DNA of 64,000 bases. Source: Candidatus Thorarchaeota archaeon. Lineage in GTDB: Archaea; Asgardarchaeota; Thorarchaeia; Thorarchaeales; Thorarchaeaceae. The notes beneath the pieces are model-generated. The model saw only the letters and a program-made list of their open reading frames with translations. It was not told the DNA's origin and ran no database searches. Positions 5,400-15,109 of this stretch are shown here, one piece after another. Each line of letters opens with the position of its first letter. Positions within the stretch are counted from its first letter, which is position 1. The stretch lies in contig JBHLRS010000007.1 in NCBI GenBank assembly GCA_048882325.1, positions 49,795 through 113,794 on the forward strand, written 5' to 3'. The position numbers and the translations under genes were made by a program.

Positions 5400-6536
5400 T
5401 TGAAACAGGTGCAAATCACTGTACCCTACGAAAAGACAGAGGCAGTGTTTGATTTTATTGTTGATGCTCTAGGTATCAACAACGTGACGAAAATGAACAC
5501 TGACAATGCTCACCTACTGCAATTTAGGATTCCAGATGCCCAGGTCAATGAGGCAATAGAGAAGCTGAAGAGCAGAGGCGTCGGTGTCGAATACGGATTC
5601 ATCGATATTCTTGATCTCAAGGCAACACTTCCTCGAGAAACAGAAGAAGTTAGCGACACCAAGATTCAGAGAGATGCGACTCTTGCTGTCGAAGAGATAT
5701 ATGAAAACGTCCACAAGCAGGCATCTCTTAGCTTCGATTTTATCGCATTCTCGATACTTGCAGCGGCAATGGCAGGTTTTGGTCTGATACAAAACAACAC
5801 CACCGTTATAGTTGCATCAATGCTACTCTCACCACTCATGGGACCGATGTTGGGTGTGGCTCTTGGTTACGTTGTGAGAGATAGACAGCTATTTGTCAAA
5901 GGAACAGTAAATGAGCTCATCTCACTGGGTTTGTCTTTCACTGTTGGAATTGTAATGGCAATTCTGTTCTATATTGGTGGATCTGCGAATTTTGTCGCAG
6001 AGGTGGTAAGTCACATGAACCCGTCCGACCCAACAATAACCGAGATTACTCGTCGCGCGGGATTCTCTCTGATTGATGTCGGAGTTGCGTTGATTTCAGG
6101 ACCAGCTGTTGCAGTTTCAGTAACTAAAGGTGACATGTCAAGTCTCGTTGGTGTTGCAATTTCAGCGGCGCTTATGCCTCCTGCGGTAAATGCTGCTTTG
6201 ATGATTGCACTGGGAGCTTTTAATGCAGAATTTATTCTAATCAATATTGGAGTTGGTTCTCTTATGCTCTTGGCGATGAACATTATCCTTATCGACATAT
6301 CAGCGATTGTGATGTTCAGAATTAAGAAACTTACACCATTAGCAAATAGATCAGCCACCTGGACAGCTGTAACTCAATTCACAAAGACTCGTAGAGAGAG
6401 TCTCTATCATACAACAAGACCGGAGCCTAATGGTGTTGCAACGTTTACTCCAGCTCCAACAACTGATGGTGGATCAGTAGAAACCAAAGAGGAAGAAACA
6501 GAGAAAGAGCCTGAGTCTACCAAAGATAATGGATGA
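5400..6536 (+). CDS. TIGR00341 / DUF389 family membrane protein
   Basis: VIVASMLLSPLMGP and LVGVAISAALMPPA motifs; small soluble N-terminal domain. Confidence 0.88.
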   Translation: MKQVQITVPYEKTEAVFDFIVDALGINNVTKMNTDNAHLLQFRIPDAQVNEAIEKLKSRGVGVEYGFIDILDLKATLPRETEEVSDTKIQRDATLAVEEIYENVHKQASLSFDFIAFSILAAAMAGFGLIQNNTTVIVASMLLSPLMGPMLGVALGYVVRDRQLFVKGTVNELISLGLSFTVGIVMAILFYIGGSANFVAEVVSHMNPSDPTITEITRRAGFSLIDVGVALISGPAVAVSVTKGDMSSLVGVAISAALMPPAVNAALMIALGAFNAEFILINIGVGSLMLLAMNIILIDISAIVMFRIKKLTPLANRSATWTAVTQFTKTRRESLYHTTRPEPNGVATFTPAPTTDGGSVETKEEETEKEPESTKDNG

Positions 6537-7244: not shown

Positions 7245-7967
7245 ATGTCAGAAGAAGGACCGAGTGATCTTGACAAAGTCTTCAAGGCACTAGGAAATGA
7301 AACTCGCAGAAGAATACTTCGCCTCCTAGCACAGGGTGAAAGATATCCCTATGAGTTAAGCAAAGTCCTAGGATTAACCCCACGGGGTGTATTCAAACAC
7401 CTTGAAGCTCTTCAAGAAGCAGGACTCGTTGAGCGACAGCATGGCGAAAGCGAGGTAGGCCCAGACAGGGTTTACTACCGACTCAATGTGAGGTTTGGGC
7501 TTTCCACCACAATCCTTCCAAATGCATTTGTTGTAAGACTAACTAGTCATGGGATAACAGGTCACCGACTCATAGTACCTCAGGGCTTTATCATCCCAGA
7601 AGCAAGACCTGACGTAGCGGCGGTAAGAAAACTCCTGCGTGAGCTAGGGAAGGTCAACAGGCAACTTGAGAAACTCGAAGATGACAGGATGCGTTTTGCC
7701 TCACTAAGGAGTCAGATAATCAGCAGAATAGAGGCAGTAATGGAGCATGCTGAGTGGGATGAGGAGAGTCGTCAGAAAGTAAGGTCTCTAATTGATCCTA
7801 TCCGGCAGCAAGTAGATGACACTGTAGAGGAACGCGAAGATGCTTGGGCTAGCACCGTCCAAGAAGCACTGAAACTTTTCGAGAATATGCTCACGGGGAA
7901 ACCTCCGATTGCAAAGAAGAAAGAAGATTCTGACGACGATGTAGAGATAATACTGGATTCTGAGTGA
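7245..7967 (+). CDS. ArsR-family wHTH regulator with C-terminal coiled coil (Phr/HSR1 heat-shock-regulator-like)
   Basis: LGNETRRRILRLL...ELSKVLGL...KHLEALQEAGLVE...GPDRVYYRL closely resembles the Pyrococcus Phr N-terminus. Confidence 0.8.
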   Translation: MSEEGPSDLDKVFKALGNETRRRILRLLAQGERYPYELSKVLGLTPRGVFKHLEALQEAGLVERQHGESEVGPDRVYYRLNVRFGLSTTILPNAFVVRLTSHGITGHRLIVPQGFIIPEARPDVAAVRKLLRELGKVNRQLEKLEDDRMRFASLRSQIISRIEAVMEHAEWDEESRQKVRSLIDPIRQQVDDTVEEREDAWASTVQEALKLFENMLTGKPPIAKKKEDSDDDVEIILDSE

Positions 7968-7968
7968 G

Positions 7969-8664
7969 CTACCAATTCCAGATTATTTTCCAGTCCGCTC
8001 TCTTTTGGCTTGACATACTCGGCACGTATTCAATCGGATTATATGGTAGTTCCACACCTTTTGCTTTCTTCACAGATAGATAGTGTTTTCCACGTGATGT
8101 GGTGAGAGTTATGATGCCTTGAGCGAGTGAATATAATTGGTTGATGGTTACTTCGTCAGCTGTTTCAGCATGTACGAGGTAGAACTCGTTTGACCCAATT
8201 TTGATGCTCTCCTCAACGCACTCTTTGAAGAACTGAACAACATCACGGGCTGAAAAGTCAATCAGAAGTGGTGTTAGACCTTCAAATGTGATTAGATTGG
8301 GCATCAGATCTTTTCTGAGACTTCTAAGTTGAATGTTAATTTCATGTAGATGTGGCGAACAGGTGTATTCTCCTAGAGTTTCTTGACCGTATCCAACCTC
8401 CATTATCTTGAAGCCATTACCCTGCATCTGCGAAAGTTCAGTCATGAGAGAGCGATTTCTAGCCTCCGTGACTACTTCCAATGTAGAAAGACCAAGCTCA
8501 ATGGCTCGTCTGATGAGAGTGAGCATAAAGAGGTCATAATGGCTGTCCTGAGAGGCCATAACGAGGAAGACATAACCTTTCGGAGGTCTAGTGAGTAGAT
8601 TGTCCACTATGCTGAACTTTGAACCGTTCTGGTCAATTGGTTCGCTACGCACTTTTTTACACAC
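7969..8664 (-). CDS. catalytically degenerate KaiC/RAD55-fold protein
   Basis: RecA-like strand pattern (LITFEGLTPLL, LYSLAQGIITL, LSVKKAKG) without a Walker A motif. Confidence 0.7.
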   Translation of the reverse strand: MCKKVRSEPIDQNGSKFSIVDNLLTRPPKGYVFLVMASQDSHYDLFMLTLIRRAIELGLSTLEVVTEARNRSLMTELSQMQGNGFKIMEVGYGQETLGEYTCSPHLHEINIQLRSLRKDLMPNLITFEGLTPLLIDFSARDVVQFFKECVEESIKIGSNEFYLVHAETADEVTINQLYSLAQGIITLTTSRGKHYLSVKKAKGVELPYNPIEYVPSMSSQKRADWKIIWNW

Positions 8665-8668
8665 TCAC

Positions 8669-9052
8669 TCATTGACTCATTCCAAGATGTTTTCTAATGG
8701 TTGCTACGAGTGCCTTACCTGAAAATGGCTTGATGATATACTCGTCAGCACCCGCTTCTTCTCCTCGTTCTACATCGCTACTCAGTCCTTTAGCAGTGAA
8801 CAATAGAATAGGAGTATCTTTGAAAGTAGCATTCTCTTTGAGTCTCTTGCAGACTTCAAAGCCATCGATAGTTGGAAGCATCACATCAAGAAGAACCAAA
8901 TCAGGAACCTCCTGATTTGCAAGTTCAAGTGCTTCCTCACCATCACTTGCTACCACCACCTCGAATCCGTGCTTCTCAAGGAATGTCTTCGCTAATTCAG
9001 TAGTCATCTGTTCATCATCGACGACCAGTATTTTCTTGCTATTGCTGTTCAT
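8669..9052 (-). CDS. stand-alone response regulator receiver
   Basis: KILVVDDE, LVLLDVMLP (phosphoacceptor Asp), FTAK, YIIKPF. ATG at 9052 after GGTGAT. Confidence 0.93.
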   Translation of the reverse strand: MNSNSKKILVVDDEQMTTELAKTFLEKHGFEVVVASDGEEALELANQEVPDLVLLDVMLPTIDGFEVCKRLKENATFKDTPILLFTAKGLSSDVERGEEAGADEYIIKPFSGKALVATIRKHLGMSQ

Positions 9053-9186
9053 GTTTATCACCGGAGGTAGGTGTGTTTTCGTAGTACTGATGAAGATCAT
9101 ATGAAAGGCGGTTCCTGGTGTAAAAAAGATGAGACTTCTTCAGCGACCCGGAACGCCTGTTATCTTGTGACTTCATCATTTTATCC

Positions 9187-10569
9187 TCATACAATTGGTA
9201 CTAAATCATAATCCAGAAAGCCCTTAGATAGCAAGGGCCTTACTGCAAGGTAGTTTGTACGTGGATTTACACCACATACACTTAGCACTCCACTCAATTC
9301 CTGAACACGAAGATGTACACTGTATGCGATTGACCCACTTTTCAATGCCTGCTGCTGTCCAAGAATACTCACAGTTGCCCGGTTTGTCGCTGGCAGGGAT
9401 GCTGTTATTTCAGCCATCATACCTTTGACATCAGTGACACCATACTTGTTTTCAAGAGTATCAAGGGAGAATAACTCAGTTGCTTCAGCGTCAAATTTGC
9501 GCTCGAGCTGTGTAGCCTCATATCTAATCTCTTGGAGCGTCTTCCATGGATCGTCATTTATGGTCCGTACATTTTCTAGCTGTCCTAGAGCATGTCGCCC
9601 AAAGAAAATGACTTGATCCTCGACAAGCTGCTGTTCAACAAAATGACTCAACCCTTGGGAAAATTGATCCGGAGACCATCCTTCTGGGAGAAGTATAACC
9701 GCAGGCCGACCAAGTTGAAGGTGGTTCGATAGAAATGGGATGTAGATTGTTTCAAGATAAGGCGCTGCTAGATTCTCAACCTCTATGAGGCTCAATACAC
9801 CTTTTTGAAAACCTCCCCCAATTATTCCATCTAAGCTTTTATTCCCAGTTGATATTCTATCAGGTGAAGGATCTTGAATTGGTTCTCTCTCCACTGTGAT
9901 TGGTGGGAACTGATGCACATGCCAGGGTACGTATGTGAATCTACCGTTGTTTAGTGTGAAGAGGAAAGTGTCTTGTTTCAGTGGTAGTGAGCGCATCTTC
10001 TCAATAGTCATTTGTCGATACATTCTCTGATCTTCACGTAGTTTCTTCAGGCGGATGATTGCATCAGCTGAGTGGTGCAGAGGGTGTTGATATTTCTCTT
10101 CCCAGTCACCTTCTGTTACAAGTACTAACTTTTTACCCTCGTTTCGGGCTGCGTAAATCAACGACTGTTGAACTTCATATCTTTTGGCTTCATCAATAGG
10201 CATCATGAAGTCGGTCCAAGAGTCGATAATTACCACGTTGTGTGATTCTGATACAGACTGCACACCGAGTAATTGCTTCAATTGCTCATGCAAAGGAACT
10301 TCATGCAAAGAACTCTCTTTCAGAGACCTCCAGTAATGAGAAACGAAATACCGCTTAGACCAATTAGGTTCCATAGATAGGCCCTTTTCCGTTACAGATG
10401 TTGATTCAGCGTTAGACATTATGAGTAAAGATTCGTTAAATTCTCGAAAGACCTCATGTACAAACAAAGTCTTGCCTGTTCCAGGCTTTCCTGTCACTAC
10501 AATAATATAGCCAGGTGCTGAGTCTAATGCATCCCTAATACTAGGCGGAATCGAGCCTTCACTGCTCAT
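9187..10569 (-). CDS. double-domain KaiC/GvpD-like P-loop ATPase (N-domain active, C-domain degenerate)
   Basis: GKPGTGKT, IIDSW, ADAIIRL, IEKMRS. Second domain STGNKSLDGIIGGG lacks Walker A. Confidence 0.85.
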   Translation of the reverse strand: MSSEGSIPPSIRDALDSAPGYIIVVTGKPGTGKTLFVHEVFREFNESLLIMSNAESTSVTEKGLSMEPNWSKRYFVSHYWRSLKESSLHEVPLHEQLKQLLGVQSVSESHNVVIIDSWTDFMMPIDEAKRYEVQQSLIYAARNEGKKLVLVTEGDWEEKYQHPLHHSADAIIRLKKLREDQRMYRQMTIEKMRSLPLKQDTFLFTLNNGRFTYVPWHVHQFPPITVEREPIQDPSPDRISTGNKSLDGIIGGGFQKGVLSLIEVENLAAPYLETIYIPFLSNHLQLGRPAVILLPEGWSPDQFSQGLSHFVEQQLVEDQVIFFGRHALGQLENVRTINDDPWKTLQEIRYEATQLERKFDAEATELFSLDTLENKYGVTDVKGMMAEITASLPATNRATVSILGQQQALKSGSIAYSVHLRVQELSGVLSVCGVNPRTNYLAVRPLLSKGFLDYDLVPIV

Positions 10570-10680
10570 TTCTGATTGCCCCTTGCTTGCGCAAATGGAG
10601 TTCACTTGTTTTGAAATATAAGGATATGTGGCTCATTTATTCTAATCACTCTTGTGATAATTCAAGAGCAACTCGAGGGT

Positions 10681-12276
10681 TTACTCTTCAAGCTTTGAAA
10701 TGAAGTCCTTGAAATACGGGCATAAACCCCCCATCCAATAGAGGTTTCCAAAGCACTCTTTTCGAAGTCCCAATCGCTCAACTCTGCACTCGAAGCTCTT
10801 CTCTCCATCAAAGAAAACGCAGAGGTCACTATCTGACTTCGGGTCATCAAGGACCATTCTTCTTACTTCTTTCATTCTATTAAGTTCAGGAGAGTCTGAC
10901 CATTCCTTGCTAGGACCCAGTTGTTTGCGAATGTGTGCTAGAAGTTTTTCATCGGGAGTCCTACCATCAGCCCAAAGTGTGACTAACTCACTGACATCTG
11001 CATTGAAACCATAGAGGAGATGATCAATATCTACTGAAACTTCTTTTGCTCTCCTGTATGCTGCTATTGCATCGTCATATCTCTGTAAAATGTAGTTTGC
11101 ATCGCCTGCAAGAAACAGTGTGAGAGTCAATGTTGACCTCATTCCTGCTCCTTCTGCAAGTTGGGTAGCTTCATCGTAGAGCCTAATTGCTTCTTCAGTG
11201 TCACCTTTGCGAAGAGCAACATCACCAAGATTGACTGTGGCAGTGGCTATACCTCGCATGTATTCAGCTTCTTGACTGATTTCCAAAGCCCGTCGATTGT
11301 AAGTTTCCATCTGAGATATTTGGTCGAGGGCTCTGTCAATCTCCCCGACATTGATGAGCGTTGCGGCAAGTCCGACTTGATTGTTGAGTTGCTGTTGAAT
11401 AATAAGCAATTCCTCGAACTGGTCTCGTGCCTCTTGGAGTCTACCCATGTTGAGGTGGATGACGCCTCGAAGTCGGCGGGCATCTGCAACACCTTGAAGA
11501 TAACCCATCCGCTCATAAGTCCGGAGAGCACTTGTTACTAGACTCAGAGCACGATCATGTTCGTAAAATTCCTCAAGTGCACGACCCCGATAAAATTTGA
11601 TGTCTGTCAAAGCCAACTGATGATCAAGATGAGTAGCAGTATCCTGAGCTGAATCAAGCCTAATCAAAGCCTCCTCTCGAGATTCACCTGAAACCGAGAT
11701 GAATGCAAGGATAATCCTCGGTCGTAGAAGAGCAGCTTGGACCATGTTACGGATGTTTGTATCCTTTGCAGTAGCTTGAGTGACTTTCTCAATGCTTTCA
11801 GACGCCACCTCCCTAGCGTGATCTGTGTAGCCTAAATCAATCAGAACAGATGCTAATTGACCAGAAAGCTCTGCAAATGCAATGTAGTCTCTTGACTGCC
11901 AAGTCTGATTTGTTATGTTTCGGAGATTGTTCAACCAACGAGGATCAAGACTTTGTCTACAATATGCTGCAGCTGCATAACCCCTCGCAGTTAGGTTTGA
12001 TTGGTCTTTAGCAAGGATCTGGTTGTATCCATACATACCCCTGAGAAAACTTGCTTTCGCACACATCGCGAGAAATGATGGAGTTCTATTCTTCCATTCA
12101 CCACTTCCAACATATTCAATCAAAACATCCGTAAAGAGCATGAAACGGTCTTTGGTGGAACGAGATTGCATTCTGAGTCGATTACGTAGTTCATCAACCT
12201 CAGTATCCTCTAATCCTGGTGTGTACATCATGAACTCTGGGATTACTGGATCGTCTTGCACTTTCTCATTCACCAT
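10681..12276 (-). CDS. tetratricopeptide repeat protein with C-terminal four-Cys domain
   Basis: Repeats such as GLAATLINVGEI and GIATATVNLGDVALRKGDTEEAIRLY; tail LCVFF...ECRV...ECFG...LCPYF. Confidence 0.85.
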   Translation of the reverse strand: MVNEKVQDDPVIPEFMMYTPGLEDTEVDELRNRLRMQSRSTKDRFMLFTDVLIEYVGSGEWKNRTPSFLAMCAKASFLRGMYGYNQILAKDQSNLTARGYAAAAYCRQSLDPRWLNNLRNITNQTWQSRDYIAFAELSGQLASVLIDLGYTDHAREVASESIEKVTQATAKDTNIRNMVQAALLRPRIILAFISVSGESREEALIRLDSAQDTATHLDHQLALTDIKFYRGRALEEFYEHDRALSLVTSALRTYERMGYLQGVADARRLRGVIHLNMGRLQEARDQFEELLIIQQQLNNQVGLAATLINVGEIDRALDQISQMETYNRRALEISQEAEYMRGIATATVNLGDVALRKGDTEEAIRLYDEATQLAEGAGMRSTLTLTLFLAGDANYILQRYDDAIAAYRRAKEVSVDIDHLLYGFNADVSELVTLWADGRTPDEKLLAHIRKQLGPSKEWSDSPELNRMKEVRRMVLDDPKSDSDLCVFFDGEKSFECRVERLGLRKECFGNLYWMGGLCPYFKDFISKLEE

Positions 12277-12472
12277 TGTCTGGTGAGCCTGCTAGTTTCT
12301 GCTCCTCTATCGCTTCGCTGTCTATGGCTATCAAAAGGCTTCTAGTGGTTTTCTCCGCGAAGATGTGTGAAAGCAGAAATATAGGTTTCGAGGATGTATA
12401 GCGAGAATATAATCGGGCGGTTCTTTCTTAAAAGTTAAAACGGGCAGTGGTATGAAATGGCTTGTGGTTCGC

Positions 12473-13228
12473 ATGCCTAAGACCCGAGTTAGTACAGGTG
12501 TCCCTGGTCTTGACGAGCTTCTAGAAGGGGGCTATGTTCAAGGAAGATCAACACTCCTAGCAGGAGGTCCAGGTACAGGAAAAAGTATCCTTACGTGGCA
12601 TTTTCTGTTTGATGGTGTTGAGAAAGGCGAGAGTGGTTTATTGGTGTCCCTCGACCAGACAGCAGATATGATCGTTGAGGATATGTCTGATTTTGGATGG
12701 AACGCGAAGAAAAGGCTTGAATCTGGATCTTTAACTATACTTAGCGGCTCGCTTAATCTGGTTCCAACAGAGAAAAGCTACGAATATGTGATTGACTTTC
12801 ATCATCCACTACTACGAGAGCAACCATTTACAGTTCCTAGATTAGCTGAACTCGTCCGAAAGAAAGCAGGAGAGGTAAACGCAAAAAGGATTGTTATTGA
12901 TGGGTTGGGACCCCTACTAGAACTAGCTGGTAATCGTTCTGAGATACGTCAACTGGTGTATGGTTTCATCCGTGAGATTGTCGATTGGGAATCGACGATT
13001 ATTCTGACACATGAACTGAAAGCCAGTGAAACTGCCCAAAATGATGAGATGCCTTTCTTCATTTGCGATGGAGTTGTTGTTCTCAAAATGCTCTATACTG
13101 CAGGAGATTATGTGCGAACGATTCGAGTAGTAAAAATGAGGGGTGCAAATCATGTCATGCGCCCGATTATGTTCAAGATTGGTCCAAATGGCATAGTAGC
13201 CTTCCCAGATGCACGTCTACCCGAATAG
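12473..13228 (+). CDS. single-domain KaiC/RAD55-family ATPase
   Basis: RVSTGVPGLDELLEGG, GGPGTGKS, RIVIDGL, ICDGVVVL, RTIRVVKMRG. Confidence 0.92.
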   Translation: MPKTRVSTGVPGLDELLEGGYVQGRSTLLAGGPGTGKSILTWHFLFDGVEKGESGLLVSLDQTADMIVEDMSDFGWNAKKRLESGSLTILSGSLNLVPTEKSYEYVIDFHHPLLREQPFTVPRLAELVRKKAGEVNAKRIVIDGLGPLLELAGNRSEIRQLVYGFIREIVDWESTIILTHELKASETAQNDEMPFFICDGVVVLKMLYTAGDYVRTIRVVKMRGANHVMRPIMFKIGPNGIVAFPDARLPE

Positions 13229-13235
13229 ACTATGA

Positions 13236-13613
13236 TCAGTAAACTGGTTGCACCTTTCTCACTGTGTCAGTCATGTCATACATGCTGAATGGTTTTTGAA
13301 GAAACGCCCTAGCTCCCACAGCAAGGACAGTTTCACCCACACCATCTATCGGGTCTGATATTACCACTATAGCAATGATGGGGTCAATGTCAAGAATATC
13401 CTCTATCAATCGCACTAGGTCCTTCTGGTCCATGTTGAAGTCGATAAGAACGACAGCTGGATTTTGATATTGACTCATGACTAACAGAGTCTGAGCGTCA
13501 TCCGCCTCACCAATAACATCGAAACCTGCATCTTCAAGTGCCATTTTCAGAAGAACCCTGAGAAGCGGAACCTCCCCTGCAACTATAATACCAGAATGAG
13601 GAACTTCTGTCAG
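13236..13613 (-). CDS. stand-alone receiver domain, atypical (acidic pocket IIVAGE); probable CTG start
   Basis: VVLIDFNM, VISD, FLQKPF. Strand beta1 and helix alpha1 lie upstream of the track ATG at 13544; no in-frame ATG/GTG/TTG precedes them, and CTG 13613 is the best-placed alternative. Confidence 0.75.
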   Translation of the reverse strand: MTEVPHSGIIVAGEVPLLRVLLKMALEDAGFDVIGEADDAQTLLVMSQYQNPAVVLIDFNMDQKDLVRLIEDILDIDPIIAIVVISDPIDGVGETVLAVGARAFLQKPFSMYDMTDTVRKVQPVY

Positions 13614-13651
13614 GTTAGTCCTGCCCCCTAGGATTTGATATTAAGACAGCT

Positions 13652-14014
13652 TCAGTCAGACACAGCACTCTCTACAAGGTCTAGCATATGACGTATTGTC
13701 ACAGGCTTTAAACCAAAACTTGCAGCACCATTTCCCATTGCCTGCTCCCTCACGTTTGCATCAGCACTGATGAAAACTATCTTGGCCTTGGGATCAATAT
13801 CAAGTATCTCTTTCATGGTCTGCATGCCATCTTTGTTAGGCATTCTATGGTCTAGAATAATGACCTCAGGTTTAGGATCCAGAGCAACGAACTTGTCAAC
13901 TGCTTCTGCGCCATCGTAGGCATCAGCCACAACCTCATGCCCCTTGATGCTGAAGACATCTTTGTAGAGCCTGTGAAGAATCGCCTCATCATCTACTATG
14001 AAGATTGTGACCAT
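13652..14014 (-). CDS. stand-alone response regulator receiver
   Basis: IFIVDDE, IILDHRMP, FISAD, GLKPV. Confidence 0.92.
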   Translation of the reverse strand: MVTIFIVDDEAILHRLYKDVFSIKGHEVVADAYDGAEAVDKFVALDPKPEVIILDHRMPNKDGMQTMKEILDIDPKAKIVFISADANVREQAMGNGAASFGLKPVTIRHMLDLVESAVSD

Positions 14015-14309
14015 ATGCTTCTTCCAACCTTGGAATACTGTCATGCTCAGAACACAGAGAATGTCAATAAACGTTGGTTAGACGGCTATTGGTGTGCGAC
14101 ACTACTCTCTGTCCCTTACGACTGAGTCTTGTACATGTCGATAACAAAACTTGAGATATAAATGATATGTGACTATGTATTATCTAACAAATCCTATTGC
14201 TGGTAAGACCTAGCTAGAACGTCGTTGAGCCTCTCTCCATTAGACATTGATTTCATCTGAACAACTAGTGATCTAAATTTAGCACGCTTCACTCTGTCTA
14301 ACTTTTAGT

Positions 14310-14941
14310 TTTCGAAAAATCGAAAGGTGATTCTGACTGAGTGACGATTTTTCGAAAGGTTTAACAATCTGAATATTGTTTTAATATTCGTTTGATTATT
14401 TGTCTTCACTTCCCCTATCAATTTCAATGATACAATTTTAGAGGAAGTTAGCTTGACACCAATCAGCTGATATGATCATTAATTACAACACTTGAACTTA
14501 TACTTTCATAATCAAACCACCACATGTTTGAGCATATGCGGGTATGAGAGAAATCTATGTATTCATTTTCTAAATATAGATATTTCCCAAAGATGCGAGT
14601 GTGACATACACTCATACTCAATATGCGTGTACTGCTACCTTTTGGGGTGAATAACCCTGCTTCTTTGTGATATTTTTTGATGAATGCTTCATATGATACG
14701 AGAAGTGAGTATATGAGAATGTAATCAATCTTGCCATTTTTTATGTAGTCAGGTCAAGCTAACACATGTTCTGGAGAACGAGTTACGAATGAGATTATAT
14801 TAATCATATGTTTGAATAAATGTGATTCCTTTATTAACCGTTATATGGTACAATATGTACCAAAAAACGGAACAATATTTAATTATATAAATAGTAAAAA
14901 GATTAGAAATTTGCTTGTATAAAATTTTCGAAAAACCGTCA
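14310..14941. repeat. three copies of the TTTCGAAAAAYCG box (14310-14322 forward, 14345-14357 reverse, 14926-14938 forward) flanking an AT-rich core with nested inverted repeats
   Basis: Read directly from the sequence; see findings. Confidence 0.75.
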
Positions 14942-15109
14942 AGGTTTGAGTGTAAAACTGAGTGATGGATAACCATCGTTAATTTGTAATACCCAAGTTA
15001 GATGGGCAAAAAATGCGCTCTTATTGTTGGAATCATTGATTACGATTACTCGACAATTGCCAATCTCCGCCAATTATGTTGGCCAATTTCCGCCTTCTAG
15101 AATAGCTAG

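Follow-up and report, generated by a model that had tools for sequence, protein, structure and literature searches.

The window studied here is a stretch of 64,000 nt from contig JBHLRS010000007.1 of the Thorarchaeota assembly GCA_048882325.1, and its region 7245-14044 holds a cluster of eight genes according to the open reading frame (ORF) list and a Pfam scan (Table 1). The genes code for three proteins with a KaiC fold (referred to as the KaiC trio), three receivers (REC1-REC3), a TPR protein and a winged-helix regulator. Within the trio, X231 is the name used for an inactivated KaiC (iKaiC), dKaiC for a GvpD-like fusion of a KaiC and an iKaiC domain, and single KaiC for the one-domain ATPase. 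An initial annotation, made from the sequence without database searches, had listed seven of the genes, and their positions and classes all hold in Pfam, NCBIfam, AlphaFold2 (AF2) and Foldseek. The regulator at 7245-7967 lies inside the span which that annotation described and was left unlisted there, so that the claim of no recognisable output domain in the 64 kb did not stand. In the 3.6 Mb genome, 3 of the 10 receiver matches and 2 of the 7 matches to the KaiC family fall within these 6.8 kb, and because of this the grouping is not due to chance. We suggest, with a probability of roughly 0.55, that the cluster is a family-specific and modular signalling node that works through protein-protein contacts.

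Table 1. Genes of the cluster and features of its flanks, in positions of the window.
Feature	Position	Strand	Evidence and remarks
ArsR/HTH_5 winged-helix regulator, 240 aa	7245..7967	+	HTH_5 44.9 bits (cut-off 22); long helical C-terminal part
X231, predicted inactive KaiC fold	7969..8664	-	AF2 and Foldseek; last gene of the TPR operon
REC1, canonical stand-alone receiver	8669..9055	-	Response_reg 107.7 bits, E 4.4e-31; longest ORF 8669-9100
dKaiC, GvpD-like two-domain protein	9187..10569	-	N half: KaiC 41.5 bits and GvpD_P-loop (PF07088) 34.1 bits (cut-off 24); longest ORF 9187-10605
TPR protein, 531 aa	10681..12276	-	Pfam TPR families
Single-domain KaiC ATPase	12473..13228	+	PF06745 175.3 bits (cut-off 26.6); longest ORF 12452-13228
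REC2, predicted pseudo-receiver	13236..13613	-	Response_reg match; ATG-delimited ORF 13236-13544
REC3, canonical stand-alone receiver	13652..14014	-	Response_reg 68.7 bits; longest ORF 13652-14044; first gene of the core operon
AT-rich non-coding kilobase upstream of REC3	14045..15109	.	GC 0.369; no ORF of at least 60 aa except at the edges
DUF389 membrane protein	5400..6536	+	Pfam PF04087, E 4.6e-30; common left-flank neighbour
Small basic protein (orf105), 105 aa	6668..6985	+	No Pfam or NCBIfam match; upstream of the regulator

The conservation of the cluster was studied in Thorarchaeota bins, where tblastn was used to score each cluster gene in 64 loci surrounding the TPR gene. Synteny of the cluster extends over 16 genera of one Thorarchaeota-like family, with 40-95% protein identity and with differing flanks, and the proposal of a dedicated conserved module thus passed the synteny test down to about 40% protein identity. 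The TPR protein is present in 71 of the 86 family genomes and in all 16 genera, and its N-terminal 215 aa were detected in 69 of 85 family genomes and in none of the 314 others in the phylum. REC3, REC2 and the TPR gene form a constant core, lying next to each other on one strand in all loci whose contigs allow judgement. dKaiC was found in 34 genomes and X231 in 38, nearly the same set, and both adjoin the TPR gene where the contigs allow. In one bin (G348) two full copies of the cluster were seen on contigs C166 and C150 (L069 and L096). The second of these is placed with genus g9 by the TPR tree and derives either from contamination (7% in this bin) or from transfer.

Four forms of the locus were observed. 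The full form occurs in 18 loci, with about nine partial contigs consistent with it, and it is found also on the deepest branches. In 12 loci the KaiC trio is missing and REC1 and the regulator are kept, in 9 loci both the trio and REC1 are missing and the regulator is kept, and in genus g12 (7 loci) a minimal form has REC3, REC2 and TPR only, beside the flank of DUF389 and orf105 and without the regulator. Altogether, dKaiC is absent while receivers and TPR are kept in 31 of the 59 scorable loci, REC1 being kept in 12 of these 31, and wherever all three KaiC-fold genes can be scored in the loci lacking dKaiC, all three are missing. Remnants of the genes were detected as residues 5-73 of dKaiC in L053, fragments of X231 in L058, L082 and L092, in L064 a broken X231 together with a partial KaiC, and in L062 one half of REC1. 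Because of such decaying remnants in several loci, the data indicate that the trio has been repeatedly lost rather than gained.

The losses do not concern all genes alike. On the TPR tree each KaiC-fold gene has changed at least 12 times and REC1 at least 7 times, and the regulator, which was found in 42 of 51 scorable loci, only once. Nine supported independent contrasts differ in dKaiC. In all 9 of them X231 has changed in the same direction, as has the single KaiC in 8-9 (p about 0.004 by a sign test); the exception is L069, where no more than 60% of the gene is covered by the KaiC match. Agreement with dKaiC is lower for REC1 (about 4 of 9 contrasts) and for the regulator (about 0 of 8). 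Since no member of the trio is kept when the others are lost, the three genes can be regarded as one functional unit, whose active and inactive products very probably act together. A mixed active and inactive set had been put forward as a possibility in the initial annotation, and the co-change of the genes argues for it.

How the members of this set differ can be seen in their motifs and predicted folds. X231 had no match in Pfam or NCBIfam, and its AF2 model (predicted local distance difference test, pLDDT, 88.5) was matched by Foldseek to FlaH (4yds), KaiC-CI and PH0284 with E-values from 6e-12 to 1e-10, probability 1.00 and template modelling (TM) scores of 0.64-0.72; a profile search reached FlaH/ArlH at E 2.6e-4. 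When the protein is aligned with its distant relatives, the N-terminal motif of KaiC is kept and the P-loop is degraded, the Walker A position reading MASQDSHYD, and X231 is thus predicted to be a stand-alone inactivated KaiC fold. The family is very rare, having 21 relatives among 1.84 billion representative proteins. In dKaiC, whose database form is 460 aa long, the N-terminal domain has Walker A, Walker B and one conserved Glu (in 82 of 84 Thorarchaeota homologues), and the C-terminal domain is strongly conserved with the KaiC-type N-terminal motif and no P-loop. The closest relatives of dKaiC outside the family are GvpD-like proteins with 23-27% identity, and its distant homologues are annotated as GvpD. 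The single KaiC has Walker A (GGPGTGKS) and Walker B (RIVIDG) conserved in all orthologues. Its SLDQ aligns with TFEE of KaiC, meaning that the catalytic Glu-Glu pair (E77/E78) has changed to Asp-Gln, and this DQ is conserved in every orthologue of the family, while the closest relatives from other Asgard families (paralogues in L038, L042 and G000) have kept EE, a diagnostic insert being common to both groups.

Of the receivers, REC1 (motifs VDDE, LDV, FTA and KPF) and REC3 (VDDE, LDH, ISA and KPV) have the canonical residues. The equivalents of D13, D14, D57, T87 and K109 are invariant or nearly so in REC1, the DD pair is present in 38 of 39 loci for REC1 and in 53 of 53 for REC3, and REC3 is the best-conserved protein of the locus with 65-97% identity across the family. 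The likely start of REC1 is Met16 of the long ORF, with its ATG at 9055. REC2, which in the genome search matches positions 1-110 of the Response_reg model, has AG or GG at the Mg-binding DD positions in all 47 loci scored and keeps the acceptor Asp and the Lys, which characterises it, as judged from its motifs, as a pseudo-receiver.

The REC2 gene has also an unusual beginning. In 11 loci there is no ATG, GTG or TTG before the first strand, and yet the upstream residues are conserved (besides the window, the pattern is seen in L049, L050, L052, L053, L056, L058, L068, L069 and L101). The homologous start position has CTG (TTG in L060 and GTG in L061), 7-9 nt behind a run similar to GGGGG or GGAGG, and in several loci the frame opens just one codon earlier. 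REC2 probably starts at the CTG at 13613-13611, behind a Shine-Dalgarno-like GGGGG run, and such a weak start would hold the amount of REC2 below that of REC3. The possibility of REC2 being a truncated pseudogene was rejected due to the conserved upstream residues and the CTG, TTG or GTG behind a G-rich run in many loci.

The AF2 model of the TPR protein (pLDDT 88.2) shows an all-alpha superhelix (residues 13-476) and, behind it, a small module at the C-terminus, in which four invariant Cys (C486, C497, C508 and C519) stand about ten residues apart. For its N-terminal part, the matches in the ESM Atlas, at about 0.93, were all to generic TPR clusters or to clusters without a name. The regulator is aligned over residues 8-192 by the NCBIfam Phr_regulator model (184 of 191 positions) at 54 bits, compared to a cut-off of 320, and is predicted to be an ArsR-type protein with a build like that of Phr and SurR and not a Phr orthologue. 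Its gene is convergent with the TPR operon. Because this ArsR regulator is syntenic with the cluster in all genera except one, there is a candidate for a DNA-binding output. In L004 and L070 (G353:C222), about 1.8 kb of extra DNA lies between X231 and the regulator. The promoter of the regulator carries a palindrome, GTACA-N5-TGTAC, that was not found at the other promoters of the cluster; in the 64 kb it occurs once perfect and once with one mismatch, which is at the level of chance (30 of 100 shuffles), and a shared operator for the cluster was rejected as the palindrome is no commoner than chance.

The initial annotation regarded the cluster as kinase-less, and this is true of the locus: there is no HATPase_c or HisKA in the window, no kinase was found in 13 orthologous or related loci, and no HisKA or KaiB was found on the contig. 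The initial annotation was likewise right that KaiA, KaiB and CheA-type proteins are missing from the 64 kb. The sole HATPase_c of the contig (C7:117693-118022, in a 594-aa open frame) lies about 4 kb past the end of the window and about 54 kb from the cluster, with no linkage apparent, and the cognate kinase or Hpt that is encoded with the receivers in classical two-component systems was not found at the cluster. The genome search found no Hpt, CheW or KaiA, and a CheY-type chemotaxis role for the receivers was rejected for the lack of CheW. The genome as a whole, however, is not kinase-less. In this bin (93% complete) there are 23 HATPase_c matches, of which about 20 have a kinase-like C-terminal G-box and 3 are N-terminal GHKL domains, and HisKA is paired with HATPase_c in 9, indicating at least nine canonical kinases. 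The receiver domains, in contrast, number only 10, with 5 of them stand-alone and 3 of these in the cluster. With many kinases and few receivers, remote kinases are therefore the simplest reading. Phosphorylation by kinases encoded elsewhere is favoured also because the KaiC trio is optional, and the KaiC-fold genes are not an obligatory phosphodonor since receivers and TPR persist without them. It is thus most likely that remote kinases phosphorylate REC3 and REC1.

It seems, then, that the node would be built around the REC3-REC2-TPR operon as its core, bringing together a canonical receiver, a pseudo-receiver and a TPR superhelix with a four-Cys module. REC3, and REC1 where it is present, would be phosphorylated by the distant histidine kinases, phosphorylation would change the binding of the receivers to REC2 and the TPR scaffold, and the Cys module of the TPR protein may bring in a further signal, metal or redox. 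The output would be the convergent ArsR regulator with its Phr-like build. The KaiC trio would be an interdependent accessory unit. Its proteins probably assemble into a hetero-oligomer with one P-loop domain competent for hydrolysis, one ATP-binding but catalytically altered DQ domain and two inactive domains, and together with REC1 the unit would link the node to the ATP state, much as GvpD lowers the level of the activator GvpE by means of its P-loop. Direct contacts of receivers with iKaiC and with TPR, as well as an output through a winged helix-turn-helix (wHTH) protein, are plausible because of published archaeal fusions and pairs of ArsR and REC-only genes.

Some of our observations speak against the signalling node. 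Physical contacts between its partners are inferred, and no kinase is tied to the cluster by neighbourhood, or by phyletic pattern, for which no co-occurrence test was made. The role given to REC2, where the acidic pair is missing, is a guess. The regulator is convergent and not co-transcribed, and since genus g12 lacks it, the core can act in its absence. In addition, all the genomes are metagenome bins, and the freely lost KaiC trio might be partly a separate system that shares the locus.

Taken to its full extent, this last point means that two uncoupled systems lie at one locus, the KaiC trio and the regulator forming one unit and the receivers and TPR another, which we consider possible although unlikely. 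Such a division would fit the loss of the trio while REC3, REC2 and TPR stay, and it would also fit what is seen in two other Asgard families (f16 and f17), where an X231-like protein and a KaiC of the same subfamily lie beside TackOD1-wHTH-AsnC regulators and small GTPases similar to Ras, Arf and Rag (L038:3237-7200; L042:4867-12841). A GvpD-like protein is present in some of these loci (for example, L042), and receivers and TPR are absent. Because of this presence in two other families, the KaiC/iKaiC unit is older than the family studied here, in which it became embedded in the REC-TPR operon. The embedding itself speaks against independence: in more than ten genera dKaiC, REC1 and X231 are interleaved in the strand run of the TPR gene and the single KaiC stands between TPR and REC2, and where the contigs allow judgement the trio is always inside the cluster and never elsewhere in the genome. 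Furthermore, the regulator stays with the receivers and TPR after loss of the trio, the opposite of what a unit of trio and regulator would predict.

The initial annotation also suggested that the TPR protein could act as a phosphatase of receivers. In Bacillus, TPR proteins of the Rap type, which combine a helix bundle bearing the catalytic Gln at the N-terminus with a TPR domain, dephosphorylate the stand-alone receiver Spo0F, and the TPR gene of the cluster likewise always adjoins stand-alone receivers. RapF (4i9c) and another Rap protein (4gyo) were indeed among the Foldseek matches of the TPR model; however, they stood at ranks 38 and 44 with TM scores of 0.40-0.46, below LGN/Pins, TSK, APC subunits and OGT, so that the likeness is that of generic TPR scaffolds, the only kind matched. 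No family of Rap type was matched in Pfam or NCBIfam, the protein of the cluster is about 150 aa longer, and neither its conserved N-terminal part nor its Cys-rich tail has a counterpart in Rap. With no specific relation to Rap seen in Pfam, NCBIfam or Foldseek, an aspartyl-phosphate phosphatase of the Rap kind is a doubtful reading of the TPR protein.

Less probable still is that the receivers are served by a kinase-independent phosphorelay, in which a KaiC-fold ATPase such as dKaiC autophosphorylates and passes the phosphoryl group on to them. Besides the lack of kinases at the locus, the intact Walker motifs and conserved Glu of dKaiC are in line with this idea, and so is the position of the REC1 gene between dKaiC and X231. 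In 74 of the 84 members dKaiC also has a His three residues before a conserved Asp (KaiC phosphosite position), where the GvpD-like relatives have Tyr or Phe. This could be seen as an autokinase with a family-specific His, from which an ATP-to-His-to-Asp route would lead to REC1 and would be tuned by iKaiC and the DQ-KaiC, but we hold this specific route to be even more improbable than the general idea. The His is replaced by Tyr (6 members) or Arg (3 members) in otherwise intact clusters such as L041, and structurally an exchange of His with Tyr or Phe is conservative. In the single KaiC the catalytic Glu pair is gone, and the receivers and TPR persist in the 31 loci without dKaiC. As the genome is rich in canonical kinases and poor in receivers, the view that KaiC hexamers write the phosphorylation of the receivers, which the initial annotation had proposed, is not supported. 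A KaiC-based timer analogous to KaiABC is very improbable: although there are three KaiC-fold proteins, and pseudo-receiver domains are known from the clock proteins KaiA and CikA, KaiA is lacking in the genome and KaiB in the cluster, none of the three proteins has the two active domains of a clock KaiC (single KaiC being one domain, without the Glu pair, and dKaiC having only one P-loop domain), and half of the relatives do without the trio.

A literature search found no paper describing this cluster. The closest known systems are the signalling hubs of KaiC-like ATPases that have been proposed for archaea (Makarova, Galperin and Koonin 2017, as summarised in PMC5847659). In the hubs as they are summarised there, genes for active and inactivated KaiC-fold proteins are found alongside signalling domains, as in the cluster. 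Receivers are linked to iKaiC and TPR by fusion in the hubs (iKaiC-REC, REC-DUF835(iKaiC), MEDS-REC and TPR-REC; PMC5847659) and by neighbourhood in the cluster. Protein-protein output prevails in archaea and pairs of ArsR and REC-only genes have been described (PMC5847659), and in the cluster, too, output is presumed to go via protein-protein contacts and an ArsR-type regulator adjoins REC-only genes. Unlike the hubs, the cluster consists of separate genes in a fixed order of eight within one Thorarchaeota-like family, and it has the rare X231, the family-specific four-Cys TPR protein and an optional trio that has been repeatedly lost. In our view, the cluster is a modular variant, new and restricted to one family, of the hybrid signalling proposed for archaea, in which KaiC hubs are combined with two-component proteins.

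Two other systems show partial likeness. In the regulation of gas vesicles in haloarchaea, GvpD requires its P-loop to reduce GvpE (PMC4390858), so that a P-loop protein of the KaiC family controls the amount of a transcription factor with a coiled-coil or zipper part; dKaiC exceeds the cut-off of the GvpD P-loop model and matches GvpD in length and in its two-part architecture. On the other hand, it is only 23-27% identical to GvpD-like proteins, the partner in the cluster is an ArsR-type wHTH protein and not GvpE, and the iKaiC, the single KaiC and the receivers are additional. No gas-vesicle context was seen, as the Pfam scan found no gvp genes in the window and the search for gvpA found none in the genome, although this search was blank in the control genomes as well. 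In KaiABC with SasA/CikA-RpaA and in the KaiC network of Pseudomonas (bioRxiv 10.1101/2022.01.26.477890), KaiC is tied to two-component proteins and pseudo-receivers take part, as in the cluster. In these systems, however, the direct partner of KaiC is a histidine kinase encoded nearby, whereas the cluster has no local kinase, no KaiA or KaiB, no protein with two active KaiC domains, and DQ in place of EE.

The idea of archaeal KaiC hubs and of their wiring to two-component proteins of bacterial type is based almost wholly on gene neighbourhoods and fusions. The cluster is a compact and well-delimited case from the Asgard archaea, and its four variants provide a natural deletion series. That the three KaiC-fold genes are lost strictly together is unusually clean evidence for one unit of active and inactive proteins, and the constant core of receiver, pseudo-receiver and TPR protein points to a read-out of receivers without a fused output domain or a local kinase. 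All its proteins being small and soluble, they lend themselves to in vitro tests of binding and phosphotransfer for which the organism need not be cultured.

The surroundings of the cluster offer a few further observations. The AT-rich kilobase at 14045-15109 is probably the promoter and control region of the REC3-REC2-TPR operon. PADLOC gave matches at the level of domains only (wHTH, REC and TPR) and no defence system, and the cluster was consequently rejected as a defence system. Elsewhere in the genome, contig C32 (13936-15638) has two genes of the KaiC family together with a weak KaiB-like match (27.3 bits, just above the cut-off), which is possibly a KaiBC-type unit unrelated to the cluster. 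The genes flanking the cluster are metabolic or unrelated. The DUF389 gene adjoins the cluster in most loci and is absent or displaced in L039, L041 and L083-86, and most loci, those of the minimal g12 form among them, conserve orf105 at 62-89% identity.

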